Below, in pieces: positions 423 to 60,217 of a DNA stretch of 60,217 bases; position 1 is the stretch's first letter; every line of letters starts with the position of its first letter. Source of the stretch: a virus. Lineage: Duplodnaviria; Caudoviricetes. A model generated the notes under the pieces. That model was not told the DNA's origin. It saw only the letters and a program-made list of their open reading frames with translations, and ran no database searches. A program made the translations under genes and the position numbers. The DNA is taken from IMG/VR virus record IMGVR_UViG_3300043427_000906, positions 1 to 60,217 of that record, one strand, 5' to 3'.

Positions 423-434
423 AACTATGGGGTT

Positions 435-485
435 AGGTTTCGCCTTGCTGAGGCTCATCAGTACGGACAGCATATCCGTAGACCT
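435..485 (-). ncRNA. Type III hammerhead ribozyme
   Basis: Minus strand reads AGGUC^UACGGA-UAUGCUG-UCCGUA-CUGAUGA-GCCU-CAGCA-AGGC-GAAACCU: complete core (CUGAUGA, GAAA, GUC), stems I-III, and loop1 UGCUG complementary to loop2 CAGCA. Confidence 0.92.
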
Positions 486-877
486 TGTCACTTACCGAGC
501 AGATACCAGTGATAAATCGACTGGCTCGTTAACCCGACCAGTGCAGACCTTTCGGCTCTCTGCACCCAACACCCTAACTTCGACTGGCGAAGGTTTGGCG
601 CGACCTAACGTGAACACTGGGAGTTGGTACGAAACCGCCAGTGTGCCTGATGTTTATTTGCTGAGGAGGGCATCCTCAAGTCCCATTCCCACTCTTCGTG
701 GTGGCTCACAACGTTTTACAACGGAAGGCTCATATCGGGACTATCGCTATGCATTTATCGTGGTTTGGTGACTGGCTATCCATCGTAAGCACCTTGTCGG
801 GTGGATGGGTAAGAGTGCGTTGCCCTAACACGTTGTAGCGAACATTTGAAAGAACTGCGGACTCATTGTCGAATCCG
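481..877 (-). ncRNA. ~400-nt structured early leader RNA between promoter and ribozyme cleavage site
   Basis: No credible ORF; many hairpins (GUGCAG..GCC-GAAA-GGU-CUGCAC; CACUGG/CCAGUG; AGUCCC/GGGACU; UGAGGA/UCCUCA; CCAC-GAAGA-GUGG; CCAGU/ACUGG); 5' end approximate. Confidence 0.65.
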
Positions 878-880
878 ATG

Positions 881-913
881 CAAACATAGGGTGGCAGGGT
901 AACTACTTCCAAA
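881..913 (-). promoter_or_regulatory. Bacteroidota sigma-type early promoter
   Basis: TTTG (913-910), 21 nt, TATGTTTG (888-881); matches the -33/-7 consensus TTTG/TAnnTTTG. Confidence 0.8.
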
Positions 914-933
914 TTTATTTTTAAAATTGATGG

Positions 934-995
934 TTATCCACACAAAAAAACCTTCGTAACTTGGTGAAAATCATAGCATAGAAAAGTTATCCACA
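934..995 (+). promoter_or_regulatory. Two perfect DnaA boxes
   Basis: TTATCCACA at 934-942 and 987-995, same orientation, AT-rich intergenic context. Confidence 0.7.
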
Positions 996-1060
996 TTCCA
1001 AAAGTTTTTTTACGAGGGGTGGTGAAAACGGGTAAAAATGGGCAAAATAATCCCAAAATA

Positions 1061-1126
1061 TTTAGCAAACGAATGCTAAAGAAATTAGTCGCTCACAATG
1101 AAAGCAAAATGCTAAAGAGATTAGCA
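1061..1126. promoter_or_regulatory. Clustered TGCTAA/TTAGCA inverted repeats (operator- or iteron-like)
   Basis: TTTAGCA-N6-TGCTAAA (1061-1080), TGCTAA-N5-TTAGTC (1074-1090), TGCTAA-N5-TTAGCA (1110-1126). Confidence 0.55.
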
Positions 1127-1149: not shown

Positions 1150-1479
1150 CTAGAGCCGTTTATTCACTAGGTAGTTACGTAAGTAAGAAAGGTATTCACG
1201 TCCAGTAGAAGAGATAGAATAATACTTGCCTTCACGTATAAGCAAACCCAGTTGGACAAGAGTGTTAAGAGTGTTCCAACTATTGCGGACATCCGGCACA
1301 ACGACGTGGGGACGGAAGCCGTTAACGTATCCAGTCAGATGAGAGATAGAAGAACGACCAAGCCGACGCGAAGCATAGAGGTAACGCAACTGGGAGTCAC
1401 TGAGTGGACGAACACCGATGCGACGAGAAGCACGATAGTTTGCCGCATCCCCCATTAGATAGTATTTTTCCGGCTTCAT
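1150..1479 (-). CDS. Winged-helix (MarR/ArsR-like) DNA-binding protein; start probably MKPEKYY rather than 1629
   Basis: C-terminal NTLNTLVQLGLLIREGKYYSISSTGREYL is a typical wHTH recognition helix plus wing. Confidence 0.6.
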   Translation of the reverse strand: MKPEKYYLMGDAANYRASRRIGVRPLSDSQLRYLYASRRLGRSSISHLTGYVNGFRPHVVVPDVRNSWNTLNTLVQLGLLIREGKYYSISSTGREYLSYLRNYLVNKRL

Positions 1480-1997: not shown

Positions 1998-2029
1998 TTT
2001 GTCGGTTCGGGGTTTTGTTTGTATGTTTG
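1998..2029 (+). promoter_or_regulatory. Bacteroidota-type promoter for the rightward arm
   Basis: TTTG (1998-2001), 20 nt, TATGTTTG (2022-2029); same -7 octamer as the leftward promoter. Confidence 0.75.
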
Positions 2030-52139: not shown

Positions 52140-53147
52140 CTATTTATTTAAGAACGTCTCGTAATAATTATTTATTTCGCTCTTGTGTACACTATCCACC
52201 CATCCCTGATACCTCTTGATGGCATCTGACTTGTGGCCGGATGCAAACCTTACATGGTCTAGTGATACACCACCAGCCAGCATCGTTGTGATAGCGGTCT
52301 TGCGTAGCATGTGTGGGTGTACAATATCGCAGAACTTCTTTGACTGGAGCGATTTATCACCGGTGTGGTCGGCCTTCTTGTATGTAGTCTCCTCGTGCAT
52401 CTCATGGTAGGTAGCAAAGAACGGCTTTAGGTTTTTGTTGATGAATGTATCCTTACATCCGAAGCGAATGGGTGTATACACTGAACCGTATTTCTCTATA
52501 TTATAAAGATATCTTTTGTAAAGAGATTCCGGCAGTGGCAGTGTGGTCATCGCCCCAGTCTTCTGATTCTCCTTCATAAGATATACCGAGCCGTTCATCA
52601 CAACATCTGACTTGCTTAGATTTATAGCATCTCCAACACGAAGGGATGTGACTAGCATCGTTGCGCTCAGTTCCCAAAGATACTTATGTTCGGGGGACAT
52701 AGAATTATAGCGGTTAGCAGTGTCGTTAATAAAGTCCTTAACGAACTGGATGGGTAGTGTAACGATTGGTACGTCAACTCCAATAGCACGTCTTACTTTC
52801 GGTAGGGTAAGAAAGTACTGCTCAGCCCAGTAGTCTGTCACTATTTTTAGAATATTAGTGACATCACGTCTTGTGTTAGCTGAGAATTTCTGACGAGTCA
52901 TCCAGTCAATGAAGAGGTCAATGTGTCTATTGAACTTATCTGCAACGGCGCGTTTATCCTCTAGTGATAGGTTGGTTAGGTTAAACTCTTCTAGGTCGAT
53001 ACCAATCTTTGCGTATCGTTGGTATGTCTTGAATGCGAAATTGTATGACTTGATGGACATAGGTTTATAGTTCGTGCCGGATCGTGTGCGTAGTTCCCCA
53101 GTCCTCATCATCGTTACATACTTCTCTAGTAATGGTGTTAGCTTCAT
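52140..53147 (-). CDS. int: Tyrosine recombinase/integrase
   Basis: SLRVGD (R), QKTG (K), HPHMLRKT (HxxR), SGH, KRY catalytic set. Confidence 0.88.
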   Translation of the reverse strand: MKLTPLLEKYVTMMRTGELRTRSGTNYKPMSIKSYNFAFKTYQRYAKIGIDLEEFNLTNLSLEDKRAVADKFNRHIDLFIDWMTRQKFSANTRRDVTNILKIVTDYWAEQYFLTLPKVRRAIGVDVPIVTLPIQFVKDFINDTANRYNSMSPEHKYLWELSATMLVTSLRVGDAINLSKSDVVMNGSVYLMKENQKTGAMTTLPLPESLYKRYLYNIEKYGSVYTPIRFGCKDTFINKNLKPFFATYHEMHEETTYKKADHTGDKSLQSKKFCDIVHPHMLRKTAITTMLAGGVSLDHVRFASGHKSDAIKRYQGWVDSVHKSEINNYYETFLNK

Positions 53148-53470
53148 GCGATTTGTCTTATATATTCTAGTATTACATTTAGTGATTCATCAGCGGGAGA
53201 CTTATATCTCTCTAGTTCATCGTGGACTTTTGCGTATGCTTGGTCTGACTGATATCTAGCATGATGAAGGGAACGGCAGTACACAATCACAGTATGGTCT
53301 ACACCCATCTGCTTACCTATTTCGGTTAGTGTGTAGCCTAGATTTACGCTGAGGATTTTACCTATGGCGTGACGTATTCTAACTGCTGCTGCTTTTCGGG
53401 ATCGGTCTTTTCTGACATCGATTCCGTACTTGTTTTTGGCGAATTCACAAAGGTCGTGGTACTCTTGCAT
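53144..53470 (-). CDS. DnaA C-terminal-like HTH protein
   Basis: RSRKAAAVRIR...YTLTEIGKQMGVDHTVIVY. Confidence 0.7.
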   Translation of the reverse strand: MQEYHDLCEFAKNKYGIDVRKDRSRKAAAVRIRHAIGKILSVNLGYTLTEIGKQMGVDHTVIVYCRSLHHARYQSDQAYAKVHDELERYKSPADESLNVILEYIRQIA

Positions 53471-56956: not shown

Positions 56957-57223
56957 TTACCACTCATTTTCGGTGAAGAATTTAATTGAATTTTGGATGC
57001 TACCAGTTGTGCCTTTCTTAATCTCATCACGACTGGGGATGTAGTTACCATAGTAGTCGCGGTGGGATTCTTTTGGTAGGAAACACGCGCCAGTCTTCAG
57101 CATATCCATAGCCGATCGACCAATCGCACCTTCCATCTTCCAAGCAGTACCAGTTTCGATGAGGAACTGCATCTCCGCGTAGCCTTGCTCACGTTGATGC
57201 TTTCTAATTGTTTGGATGTTCAT
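56957..57223 (-). CDS. Hypothetical early protein
   Basis: ORF track; AWKMEG..GR.AM...RDYYGN.IPSR. Confidence 0.65.
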   Translation of the reverse strand: MNIQTIRKHQREQGYAEMQFLIETGTAWKMEGAIGRSAMDMLKTGACFLPKESHRDYYGNYIPSRDEIKKGTTGSIQNSIKFFTENEW

Positions 57224-57242
57224 AGGTTTGAAATTTAGTTAG

Positions 57243-57285
57243 GAACTGCCGGAGGAATCGAACCTCCGTAAGACCATCGCAGTTC
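57243..57285 (-). ncRNA. Mini-tRNA-like junction element E3
   Basis: GAACUGC-GAUGGUCUUA-CGGAGG(UUCGAUU)CCUCCG-GCAGUUC; canonical T-loop. Confidence 0.8.
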
Positions 57286-57289
57286 TTTT

Positions 57290-57358
57290 GCCGAGCCGAT
57301 AGTGAACACATCTATGTCCTCCTATCCCCACACTATATGTGGTGGCTCTCGGCGGTTC
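57290..57358 (-). ncRNA. Additional branched structure 5' of E3
   Basis: GCCGAG/CUCGGC closing stem, CCACA-UAUAG-UGUGG hairpin, GAUAG/CUAUC; shares GAGCCACCAC..GUGGGRAURGG with 683-707. Confidence 0.55.
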
Positions 57359-58013: not shown

Positions 58014-58033
58014 ATTATAGGGGGTTTGGTGAG

Positions 58034-58079
58034 GAACTGAGGGTGGTTTCGCTCCGACTTCGGTCAAACTTCGCAGTCC
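58034..58079 (-). ncRNA. Mini-tRNA-like junction element E4 (degenerate)
   Basis: GGACUG...CGAA-GUCGG(AGCGAAA)CCACC-CUCAGUUC then CUCACCAAA; 3' half identical to E5. Confidence 0.6.
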
Positions 58080-58085
58080 GGTGGA

Positions 58086-58262
58086 TTAAAATTTAATCCA
58101 TTGTTCTTCCGGAAGGAACTCAAGAAGATTGTCTTTGGGAATAAAGGACAATAATGCCCAAACAGCAGTAGTGTCTCCATCTTCAACATCTTTTAAAATC
58201 TGCTCAATTACTGCATCAATTAATGCTTTTTTTTCTACCATAACTTCAATAGTTGTCTTCAT
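58086..58262 (-). CDS. Hypothetical early protein, 58 aa (MKTTIEVMVEKKALIDAVIEQI...)
   Basis: Translated by hand; exactly bracketed by E5 and E4. Confidence 0.7.
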   Translation of the reverse strand: MKTTIEVMVEKKALIDAVIEQILKDVEDGDTTAVWALLSFIPKDNLLEFLPEEQWIKF

Positions 58263-58282
58263 TTGTGTTTTGATTTGGTGAG

Positions 58283-58328
58283 GAACTGAGGGTGGTAACG
58301 AACCACCTTCGCACGTTGCTCTCAGTTC
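58283..58328 (-). ncRNA. Mini-tRNA-like junction element E5
   Basis: GAACUGAG-AGCAACGUGCGAA-GGUGG(UUCGUUA)CCACC-CUCAGUUC then CUCACCAAA. Confidence 0.78.
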
Positions 58329-58334
58329 GGGGGA

Positions 58335-58820
58335 TTAAAACTCCCAGTCATAGTGATACTCTGCAACACCGAAGAGGATATTAACCTTATCGAATGACTT
58401 CTTGACTTTAGTCACTCCATCAATCAATCGAAGGTCACCTCTATCATCCCATACGTTAAGTAGCTTCTGCGCATCCCATAACTCCTCTCTAGTGGCGAAA
58501 GAATTGTACCAATCATCGTTGAATACAATCATATTGCACTCTTTCCTCCACGCACGATTGCGGTATACTAAGGTATGCTTGGGGGCAGATAGGTCGGGGG
58601 TAATATCCCACTCTTGATGTCCCATACCTTCGCCTATCGCTTTATGCTTCATCGCTCTAATTACGCACCTCTTACCATCATTAGATACCTCTAGCACCTC
58701 GTAAGGGTATCGGTCGGAATACATTAGCAGAGTAGCACCTTTGCCTACTTCGGGAACGGATGAATTGTTGCCCATTAGGTAGTTGGTGAAGCTACCTTCT
58801 AGTTTTCTTTTTTGTCTCAT
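58335..58820 (-). CDS. Hypothetical early protein
   Basis: PEVGKGAT...SDRYPYEV...G....YDWEF. Confidence 0.7.
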   Translation of the reverse strand: MRQKRKLEGSFTNYLMGNNSSVPEVGKGATLLMYSDRYPYEVLEVSNDGKRCVIRAMKHKAIGEGMGHQEWDITPDLSAPKHTLVYRNRAWRKECNMIVFNDDWYNSFATREELWDAQKLLNVWDDRGDLRLIDGVTKVKKSFDKVNILFGVAEYHYDWEF

Positions 58821-58839
58821 AGGTTTAAAATTTGATTCG

Positions 58840-58882
58840 TAACTGGGAGGGGAGTCGAACCCCTCCTAAGACCATCCAGTTA
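58840..58882 (-). ncRNA. Mini-tRNA-like junction element E6
   Basis: UAACUGG-AUGGUCUUAG-GAGGGG(UUCGACU)CCCCUC-CCAGUUA; begins in the upstream stop codon. Confidence 0.8.
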
Positions 58883-59641
58883 TCCGCATACGAACTCCGG
58901 TATGCTTACTTCAACCCCATTCTCTACGATATCTTTCAGCCAGTTCTTCTCCTTGCCACTCATCAGCAAGGTGAATCCTAATCTCTCTTCGGTTTCTACG
59001 TAGCGCTTGTATAGGTCGGGATTATGCTTAGCCGCTACTTTGATATCACTTTTATTGGACATAATACAAAACACACACGATAGTCGGCTCATACCTAAAT
59101 CGTAGGCATAGTGTCTCTTTTGACCTACTGATTCGATTTCTGCCCATACTTCCTTAACACTCCAGTCAAAAATGGGTAACCAGTCATACCATTCGCGACC
59201 GGCTTTGCTATTGCGTTCACTGATACGGAATGGGATTTGTTTTGCTCGTGCTGATGATTCTTCCGCGCGGATGCCCATACAATTCACGATGATATTTTTG
59301 CCGTTTTCCTTGCACCAGTTACGGATAAATTTCTCAATCGGTTGTCTCTTGAGGTCACTGGTACACTGGCGATAACTGGGGGATGGGAACATACCACGAT
59401 GCTCGACCATCTCAAAGAAAGTTTTTCCGGCACGTACCATATGCGCCTCAATGCCCATTGAATTCTGCTGAACGTGTTCCCAACATCCCTCCCAGTCAAC
59501 TTCGGGTAGGTCTGCGTGGATGATTACCAGTTGGTCGTGTGGAACGACTTTGCTCAAAAATATTTTCATTGCTTGAGAATCCTTTCCACCGGAATCATTG
59601 ATGAAAAATATTGCGCCTCTGTCAATTAATTGCTGAATCAT
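58880..59641 (-). CDS. PAPS reductase-family (PP-loop, Fe-S) protein
   Basis: DSGGKDS, QCTSDLKRQP, GIRAEESSAR, WLPIFDW, SRLSCVFC. Confidence 0.85.
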   Translation of the reverse strand: MIQQLIDRGAIFFINDSGGKDSQAMKIFLSKVVPHDQLVIIHADLPEVDWEGCWEHVQQNSMGIEAHMVRAGKTFFEMVEHRGMFPSPSYRQCTSDLKRQPIEKFIRNWCKENGKNIIVNCMGIRAEESSARAKQIPFRISERNSKAGREWYDWLPIFDWSVKEVWAEIESVGQKRHYAYDLGMSRLSCVFCIMSNKSDIKVAAKHNPDLYKRYVETEERLGFTLLMSGKEKNWLKDIVENGVEVSIPEFVCG

Positions 59642-59660
59642 AAAATTGGGGTTTGGTGGT

Positions 59661-59704
59661 AACTGGGGGCAGTATCGCTCTGCCTTCGGACTTTCCTCCC
59701 AGTT
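59661..59704 (-). ncRNA. Mini-tRNA-like junction element E7
   Basis: AACUGGG-A-GGA(AAG)UCC-GAA-GGCAG(AGCGAUA)CUGCC-CCCAGUU followed directly by ACCA. Confidence 0.75.
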
Positions 59705-59711
59705 CGGGTGA

Positions 59712-59795
59712 CTACTTACAAAACTGGTCTTGCAGTAGACCTACAACGTACCCTACTACTAGCAGAGTAACGAAGAGATAGATAACTTGTCTCAT
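59712..59795 (-). CDS. 27-aa membrane peptide (MRQVIYLFVTLLVVGYVVGLLQDQFCK)
   Basis: Translated by hand; ATGA-coupled to the upstream ORF, stop directly before E7. Confidence 0.6.
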   Translation of the reverse strand: MRQVIYLFVTLLVVGYVVGLLQDQFCK

Positions 59796-59983
59796 AAGGA
59801 TAAATTTGCTTGTCTACAAATGCGCTCCCATTTTAGGTCTCGGAGCAATTGCTTAGAATCACCGCCAATTTCGTTGAGAATCTGCCTTACCCTATTATGG
59901 GTGGAGATGGTAACCTCAGTACGGCGGATGAGCTGACCATTGGTCTTGGATGTGAATAACGGCATTTTTTTACGCGTTCTCAT
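59792..59983 (-). CDS. Basic early protein (MRTRKK...)
   Basis: ORF track. Confidence 0.6.
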   Translation of the reverse strand: MRTRKKMPLFTSKTNGQLIRRTEVTISTHNRVRQILNEIGGDSKQLLRDLKWERICRQANLSL

Positions 59984-60217
59984 GGGTAGGAGATTTTAAG
60001 ATGATTGAATCGGATTCGAATTTTACTATAGCCCATCCTAAGTACATTAGTTGGGCGGCAAGTTTCTGACCACTGAGGGTGGTTAGGTCGATTGTCTGCA
60101 TAACTGATTTTTAAATGATTAAAACAATGTTGATGCGATAAGTAGGCAGATGCCAAACACCGCGATAAAATAGCAAAAACCTTCGATAATTTGTCTTGCT
60201 TCGTTCGTAGTTTGATG
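59962..60217. repeat. Terminal overlap, allele B (lacks the 57-aa gene)
   Basis: Matches 1-22 joined directly to 183-416. Confidence 0.95.

Follow-up and report, generated by a model that had tools for sequence, protein, structure and literature searches.

The minus strand of IMGVR_UViG_3300043427_000906, a 60,217-nt virus record from IMG/VR (CheckV completeness 89%) that was analysed over its whole length and is called the window here, carries at the head of its early operon a structured RNA of ~397 nt (877-481, minus strand), which lies between a Bacteroidota-type promoter and a hammerhead ribozyme motif. An earlier reading of the letters without database searches (the sequence-only reading) had proposed a discrete, large, structured non-coding RNA (ncRNA) with these two ends, and comparison with relatives bears this out: the RNA is conserved in 25 distinct phage or metagenome sequences, shows strong covariation, does not encode a protein, combines promoter, boxA and ribozyme motifs, and is present in RNA libraries. 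As to its function, we infer from these features, as a moderately probable account, that it is a leader RNA that is loaded with Nus factors and released by its own ribozyme, with cleavage followed by a stable body acting in trans.

Conservation, fold and non-coding status of the RNA

Homologues were collected from IMG/VR and metagenomes, and after removal of duplicates the family was tallied as 25 distinct sequences, the window included (relatives are denoted by locus labels beginning with L). A blastn search in distant mode with 300-1150 against 50,697 phage records gave no match, and an exact-peptide-word search for loci with the 159-aa open reading frame (ORF) upstream of the RNA found no relative, this protein being too variable for such words. 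Homologues of 432-920 were present in 10 distinct contigs among 80 loci fetched by their terminase and 40 fetched by their PAPS-reductase-like gene. Moreover, a scan pattern built on the most conserved block was applied to three collections with confirmation by nhmmer, and 10 of 11 pattern loci were confirmed in IMG/VR viral contigs and 22 of 55 in metagenome contigs; the third collection, representative genomes, is considered below. The core pattern is found in 22 of the 25 members, and L043, L047 and L055 have head and tail alone in common with the others. This phage group occurs across freshwater metagenomes of many studies.

GC content is 0.50-0.535 over 401-900, compared with ~0.40 around it. 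When the minus strand was folded as a single sequence, the minimum free energy was -120.5 kcal/mol (z -0.46), a value matched by 30 of 100 shuffles, and the plus strand gave no signal (z 0.01). Since the single-sequence fold is no better than shuffles, the case for the structure rests on comparison, and the dense series of helices described in the sequence-only reading could not be verified from this sequence alone. The scored alignments were made with MAFFT and were not fitted to the structure (A1, 22 sequences; A2, 19; A4, 14). For the 27 pairs of the 3′ core in A1, 91.1% of cells are paired, compared with 69.4% in shuffles, none of 500 of which reached the observed value, and 19 pairs have changed on both sides; cells with a double change number 134 against 42.7 in shuffles, and the covariation is 0.561 against 0.162 in shuffles and 0.044-0.095 when partners are slid by 1-3 columns. 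For the 22 pairs of the middle domain M3 in A4, 95.2% of cells are paired compared with 75.6% in shuffles (again 0 of 500 reached this value), 17 pairs have changed on both sides, double-change cells number 56 against 16.8, and the covariation is 0.553 against 0.214 in shuffles and 0.041-0.131 with slid partners. The second core alignment, A2, gave figures similar to those of A1, and RNAalifold on A1 returned 23 pairs, 16 of them with compensatory change.

One pair of P1 appears in all four Watson-Crick types without a single broken cell (CG 9, UA 8, AU 4, GC 1), and neither of its columns is fixed by the search pattern. Three pairs in A1 are invariably G-U and would be C-A mismatches if read on the plus strand; therefore, the folded strand is the minus-sense RNA. 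A covariance model of the 3′ core (R1) found one copy in the window, at 122.3 bits. The conserved structure that the sequence-only reading had expected in related phages was in this way recovered by covariation.

From 5′ to 3′ along the minus strand, the body begins with domain M2 (759-832), which is closed by a CGUG/CACG helix (832-829 with 762-759) and contains a UUAG/AAAC internal loop and an inner hairpin (808-780); by eye, with no formal count, L127 has UGUG/CACA as its closing helix and L043 has GAG/CUC, and both L127 and L047 carry another hairpin in place of the inner one. Domain M3 (662-742) is a multi-helix junction in which helix Pa pairs AGUCCC (742-737) with GGGACU (684-679), with a GAUA junction and the further helices Pb (729-704), Pc (701-689, with a GAAGA loop) and Pd (678-662); every cell of Pa is paired (100%), and 11 different fully paired versions of this helix are found. 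A nearly invariant single-stranded joiner, GCAAAUAAACAUCAGG, with an AUAA core (646-661), leads to hairpin Pe (CACUGG/CCAGUG, 615-643), which is invariant in the close subfamily; in the other subfamily the hairpin at this position has, by eye, the stem GCGU/ACGC, GUGU/ACAC or UCGU/ACGA around a conserved loop. The 3′ core domain (490-605) comprises P1/P2 (601-569) with an AAAC/UUAG internal loop, P3 (566-540) with a CC-GAAA-GG cap, P4 (537-533 with 499-495), P5 (524-506) with the conserved loop CGAUUUAUC, and a UAAGU tail. Both the GNRA-capped P3 and P5 covary. A pairing between AUAAA of the joiner and UUUAU of the P5 loop is suspected; the joiner is nearly invariant, which puts this pairing beyond the reach of covariation. 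The AAAC/UUAG internal loop is present twice, in M2 and in the 3′ core, and tertiary contacts through these loops or the GAAA tetraloop of P3 are plausible. The features listed in the sequence-only reading are all present with small coordinate shifts, i.e. the promoter at 913-881, boxA at 856-845 (one base off), the GNRA hairpin at 566-540, and the AGUCCC/GGGACU (742-737/684-679) and CACUGG/CCAGUG (643-615) stems.

The same reading saw no credible ORF in this region, and the relatives agree with it: the ORFs at 427-771 (plus strand, 114 aa) and 730-912 (minus strand, 60 aa) are interrupted by in-frame stops or frame shifts in relatives, and a Pfam search with both gave no family match. The overlap of these ORFs with the RNA, together with two perfect DnaA boxes 21-82 nt upstream of the promoter, might point to a small protein gene or to an element acting as DNA, such as a replication origin or packaging site, in place of an RNA. 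However, the invariant G-U pairs fit a minus-sense RNA only, the ORFs are broken in relatives and the DnaA boxes lie outside the transcribed part, and we regard such an explanation as extremely improbable.

At the gathering score, Rfam 15 (4227 families) gave no match in the window and none in the loci of 15 relatives; at E up to 10 on 425-925, the hammerhead was the sole match, with no riboswitch, T-box, GOLLD, ROOL or C4 antisense RNA, and the variant bodies and insertions of relatives likewise gave nothing but the hammerhead. A comparison with Rfam, with ROOL and GOLLD named in particular, had been proposed in the sequence-only reading, and the body of the RNA matches none of its families. 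Published work on phage ncRNAs, hammerheads and leaders, supplements excepted, yielded no description of this RNA, and none of the direct or inverted repeats listed for the window ties it to the rest of the sequence (e.g. as a template like that of a diversity-generating retroelement). This RNA, as we see it, is a new family built from known devices. It resembles GOLLD and ROOL in being several hundred nt long, phage-borne and rich in covarying helices, but their Rfam models do not match it, and its position is fixed, that of an operon leader bearing boxA and ribozyme, whereas GOLLD and ROOL are found near tRNA genes. A search of the window for tRNA and tmRNA genes found none.

The boxA head and the alternative 3′ ends

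The promoter (881-913, minus strand) consists of a -33 element TTTG (913-910), a 21-nt spacer and the -7 element TATGTTTG (888-881), and it is typed by what we take to be the Bacteroidota consensus and its distance to the start site, by which transcription would start ~4 nt past the -7 box, near 877. The motif TTTG-N19-21-TAnnTTTG has two matches in the window where 1.02 are expected, so that the count alone is not significant, and the other match is divergent (1998-2029, plus strand); in 14 of the 25 members the strict motif is found at the same place with varying spacer. The closest cultured relatives of the large terminase (TerL), at ~30% identity, are phages of Flavobacterium, Cellulophaga, Maribacter and Tenacibaculum, and together with the promoter type they point to a host of the Bacteroidota lineage.

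Directly before boxA, in a boxB-like position, the transcript has a 20-nt hairpin (858-877, minus strand), and by eye a hairpin of differing sequence is found at the same place in relatives (e.g. L047, L052, L124, L128, L156, L173, L186). The boxA-like motif AGUUCUUUCAAA (845-856, minus strand) follows straight after the hairpin, at RNA positions 22-33. In 20 of the 25 members, G[CT]TCTTT is present between promoter and body; it stands close behind the promoter and in every case follows a hairpin of variable sequence. This boxA-like motif, noticed already in the sequence-only reading, is real in the sense that it shares GUUCUUU with Bacteroidota 16S upstream regions: among 13 Bacteroidota 16S loci, 10 have GTTCTTT in the 300 nt upstream of the gene and 11 have it in the 500 nt upstream, and on the minus strand of the window the heptamer is rare (18 in 60 kb). 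The motif is thus the same as in the ribosomal RNA (rRNA) leaders of the probable host lineage, which itself was assigned from promoter and TerL. The gamma-proteobacterial boxA consensus is GYTCTTTAANA (PMC5725501); GUUCUUU fits its first seven letters (GYTCTTT), and the next four letters, CAAA, deviate from AANA at a single position. Moreover, a hairpin followed by boxA is the order of rRNA leaders (PMC10250234). A blastn-short comparison of the RNA with the 13 Bacteroidota rRNA operon (rrn) loci showed no similarity beyond the heptamer. Because of heptamer identity, position and rRNA-leader order, 877-845 would be an rrn-type Nus loading site.

Compared with the rrn leader (boxB-boxA-boxC) and lambda nut, the RNA has the same hairpin and boxA within its first 35 nt in rrn order, the Bacteroidota 16S heptamer, and a position that opens a long early operon of a phage; unlike in these systems, boxA is followed by a conserved, folded stretch of ~360 nt, and this by a predicted self-cleaving ribozyme. 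A further difference from lambda nut is that no N-like protein turned up here, though no search aimed at one was made.

At the other end, a type III hammerhead (432-488, minus strand) was detected with 39.4 bits (E 2e-6 to 4e-7), with predicted self-cleavage at 481/480, after GUC. The window has the full catalytic core and UH site (GUC, CUGAUGAG, CGAAAC), and the core CUGANGA...GAAA with a UH site, which is GUC, GUA or GUU, is present in 19 of the 25 members; hammerheads of relatives score 24.3-40.2 bits. Stems I and II are loop-closed and stem III is open, and by eye all three stems vary yet stay complementary. Cleavage by a hammerhead leaves a 2′,3′-cyclic phosphate upstream and a 5′-OH downstream (PMC10250234). 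The ribozyme is like the type III hammerheads of phages and prophages (RF00008) in its catalytic core, UH site, three stems and open stem III, but differs from them in scoring below the gathering threshold, in apparently making the 3′-end of a large ncRNA, and in being interchangeable, in relatives, with a terminator-like hairpin. L156 carries three hammerhead-like ribozymes in tandem in its early operon (~5568, 5247 and 4894, minus strand; ~330 nt apart), which would be punctuation between small genes.

In L183 (1036-1095), L170 (1885-1945) and L155, a conserved branched hairpin, whose outer stem covaries and whose inner sequence is conserved, stands together with a following U-run in the place of the hammerhead; it is either a terminator or a processing element not described before. 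Those of L183 and L170 escape a simple terminator scan and were examined by folding. Since two different devices for making a 3′-end are found at the same place, a defined leader end appears to be selected.

The same 3′-ends also bear on the possibility that the RNA is a purely cis-acting 5′ leader, i.e. a sensor, riboswitch-like or protein-binding, whose effect on termination, cleavage or translation controls the early operon and which has no function after release. The RNA always follows the early promoter and precedes the first early gene, the hairpin and U-run right after the core in L183, L170 and L155 resembles an expression platform, the RNA is a plain 5′ untranslated region (UTR) in L128, L161 and L179, and the 3′ core ends just 8 nt before hammerhead stem III, so that folding could influence cleavage. 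However, whole-domain swaps and insertions among close relatives (L043; L157, L179) are unlike ligand-binding aptamers, searches at E up to 10 give no match to any riboswitch or T-box model, and RNA libraries assemble the leader only. We regard a purely cis-acting sensor as possible, with a minor share of the probability.

Proposed release of the RNA and exchange of its body

Of 24 sequencing runs listed, 6 are RNA, and four RNA runs from four studies were compared with 1-2000. Contigs of 318, 386, 462 and 490 nt from these four metatranscriptomes cover 489-859 only, plus 1088-1316 in one run; one of them starts at 489 without a loose end, and the genes below 481 are reached by none of them. 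At the loose ends of RNA-library contigs, an insertion of the L157 type and body variants of the L047 type are also present. The uncovered parts (below 481; 860-1087) are no evidence of absence, and the coverage hints at a discrete, relatively abundant RNA.

In the account that we favour, transcription would start near 877, and the hairpin and boxA within the first 33 nt would load the NusB/S10 (Nus) complex of the host onto RNA polymerase, which would shield the long untranslated RNA from Rho and may aid its folding, as in rRNA operons. The three covarying domains (M2, M3 and 3′ core) would then fold, and the hammerhead would cut at 481/480, leaving the cyclic phosphate on the leader and the 5′-OH on the mRNA. 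The freed RNA would most likely persist and act by itself, through protein binding or as a scaffold.

Several observations weigh against this account. Clear boxA is absent in 4-5 of the 25 members (L053; L139; L170, GCUCUUA; L155, which meets the contig end; L046, GUUCUUA). The hammerhead score of the window, 39.4 bits, is lower than the Rfam gathering score of 48.5. L128, L161 and L179 (3 of 25) have neither ribozyme nor terminator, and there the RNA remains a 5′ UTR. The RNA-library contigs show neither RNA ends, strand nor level, and DNA carry-over is possible. The pattern scan of representative genomes gave 15 matches, none confirmed by nhmmer, so that no prophage copy or host was found there. 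The cut behind boxA would sever the link between boxA and polymerase, and antitermination may accordingly not span the operon, with boxA possibly serving the leader only. Finally, terminator-like sites in the operon are not enriched, 12 being found compared with 11.1 +/- 3.3 in shuffles. With these points taken into account, the Nus-loaded leader that is released by its ribozyme and acts in trans remains the reading to which we give somewhat more than half of our belief, ahead of a cis-acting sensor, an immunity RNA, a put-like element, and a DNA element or coding region.

The last two observations also concern the operon as a whole. The minus-strand genes run from 60217 to 44024 and continue over 1-1629, with PAPS-reductase-like, integrase, Rad52-like annealase, YqaJ exonuclease, primase-helicase and deoxynucleoside monophosphate kinase genes, and this gene set is the early operon (~16 kb) of a temperate phage; the plus-strand genes (~2270-44047) include large terminase and portal. 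The sequence-only reading had suggested a decoy or scaffold RNA or a put- or nut-like antitermination leader needed to transcribe ~16 kb through several terminators. The comparison with shuffles lends no support to several terminators, and only one convincing terminator was found on the minus strand (49748-49729). A put-like element, whose folded RNA binds the transcribing polymerase directly and gives terminator resistance along the 16-kb operon, would agree with the location close to the promoter, at the start of a long operon, and with this one good intrinsic terminator en route, as well as with the analogy drawn earlier. In HK022, put is ~70 nt long and consists of two stem-loops that stay attached to polymerase, and its action needs the linked RNA. 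Compared with put as described here, the RNA of the window is likewise cis-encoded at the start of a phage operon, but it is about five times as long, and it has the boxA and ribozyme that put lacks. Moreover, the predicted ribozyme cut would free the RNA from polymerase, which argues against a tethered put- or nut-like mechanism for the whole operon; the hammerhead would sever it in 19 of 25 members, and the bodies are not conserved among close relatives. We hold a put-like element to be very unlikely.

The variation of the body has a pattern of its own. In comparison with L043, whose TerL is 96% identical, only the first 142 nt of the query (78%) and the hammerhead (query positions 432-488, 91%) align, and the body is replaced. 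In L157 (~320-465), L179 and L002 (3968-4110), an insertion of ~150 nt is found between two AGUUCUUU boxA copies; it has its own closing stem (GCUUACU/AGUAAGC), gives no Rfam match, and is present in RNA-library contigs. Because the body is replaced in L043 and insertions are present in L157, L179 and L002, the RNA body appears to behave as a cassette within a fast-evolving control region.

The constant upstream neighbour of the RNA (tblastn in relatives; alignment A3) is a small MarR-like winged-helix gene (1153-1479, minus strand), whose true start is likely M51 of the 159-aa ORF at 1150-1629. The AlphaFold2 model of its product has a mean pLDDT of 82.8, the best Foldseek matches are MarR-family regulators (E 2e-3, TM 0.57-0.67), and a profile search of the PDB gave Sso10a (E 0.0018). 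This gene is hypervariable, with 53% identity where the terminase has 96-98%.

Cassette exchange beside such a regulator is what might be expected of an RNA-based immunity or specificity factor like P4 CI or P1 c4, which would be released, act in trans on phage transcripts and set heteroimmunity. The CI RNA of P4 and the c4 RNAs of P1 and P7 are ~70-80 nt long; RNase P releases them, and they pair with sites within the transcript that they come from. The RNA of the window shares with them its proposed origin by cutting from an untranslated early-operon leader and its place in the immunity region of a temperate phage; it differs in its length of ~400 nt, in its predicted release by a ribozyme, and in the absence of a target complement in the genome. 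Its location in a hypervariable control region, beside a MarR-like regulator evolving far faster than TerL, the exchange of bodies as cassettes, the integrase of the phage, and RNA-library contigs on the leader (with the regulator gene in one run) and on no early gene are all in favour of such a factor. But no complement of at least 12 nt was found in the phage genome, six 11-mers compare with 10.1 +/- 4.4 in shuffles, the conserved P5 loop has a single complement, of 11 nt and inside the integrase ORF (52350-52360), and the antisense families of Rfam do not match. An immunity or specificity factor of this kind seems to us unlikely.

Genome setting and significance

The end of the contig (59980-60217) repeats 179-416 with 98% identity; circular permutation or terminal redundancy of the genome follows from this. 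The repeat at the contig end (region 59962-60217) lacks 1-178, which encodes a 57-aa ORF, and the missing copy reflects either two strain variants that were co-assembled or terminal redundancy with an indel.

Upstream of the promoter of the RNA, the only two perfect DnaA boxes (TTATCCACA) of the window are found at 934-942 and 987-995 (plus strand; 0.68 expected by chance), and the phage protein encoded at 53144-53470 has a weak match to the DnaA C-terminus; the boxes may mark an origin or control of the early promoter by DnaA. Candidate operators are the TGCTAA-N5/6-TTAGCA palindromes at ~1060-1126 (minus sense), in the stretch from the MarR-like gene to the promoter; a similar palindrome is found in L052, L055 and L186. 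Downstream of the divergent promoter at 1998-2029 (plus strand), the sole other consensus promoter of Bacteroidota type in the window, ~240 nt of GC-rich leader precede the first plus-strand ORF (region 1998-2270); this may be a second structured leader, and it lacks the boxA heptamer.

Within the early operon, five repeated intergenic elements (57195-57290, 58015-58110, 58255-58350, 58800-58890 and 59640-59735, minus sense) were considered as terminators and rejected, as their fold is that of a tRNA-like minihelix. In each of them, a 7-bp acceptor-like stem (GAACUGN/NCAGUUC) encloses a small hairpin and a second one that resembles a T-arm and has a UUCGAUU-type loop; two are followed by ACCA or CCA, and ARAGORN calls no tRNA. 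They may be sites for RNase P or RNase Z cutting between cistrons. As signs of a theme of RNA processing, they and the three hammerheads of L156 speak for the proposed release of the leader. The motif CCCCCGAAC, which precedes each minihelix, is also found after the stop codon of the MarR-like gene, both here (1133-1150, minus sense) and in L046, L052, L053 and L055.

Large, well-folded and covarying RNAs to which no function has been assigned are rare, and new biology has come from each new class; the present RNA has unusually clear boundaries and context, with promoter, boxA and a device for its 3′-end. Its rRNA-type boxA hints at Nus-factor loading by phages of Bacteroidota, a lineage in which this machinery has barely been studied, and it offers a natural case in which a hammerhead, or in relatives a terminator-like hairpin, apparently determines where an ncRNA ends at its 3′ side. 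Because of its small size, the element lends itself to direct tests in Flavobacterium or Bacteroides reporters. Moreover, domain swapping points to an arms race or to immunity specificity. We suggest, tentatively and with low confidence, that the body is an exchangeable specificity cassette, which either acts in trans after release, in immunity or counter-defence at the RNA level, or controls ribozyme cleavage as an allosteric sensor. If true, this would explain why unrelated bodies are found between the same boxA head and hammerhead tail in near-identical phages, beside a fast-evolving MarR-like regulator, and the RNA would represent a new class of large regulatory RNA deciding the fate of temperate Bacteroidota phages.

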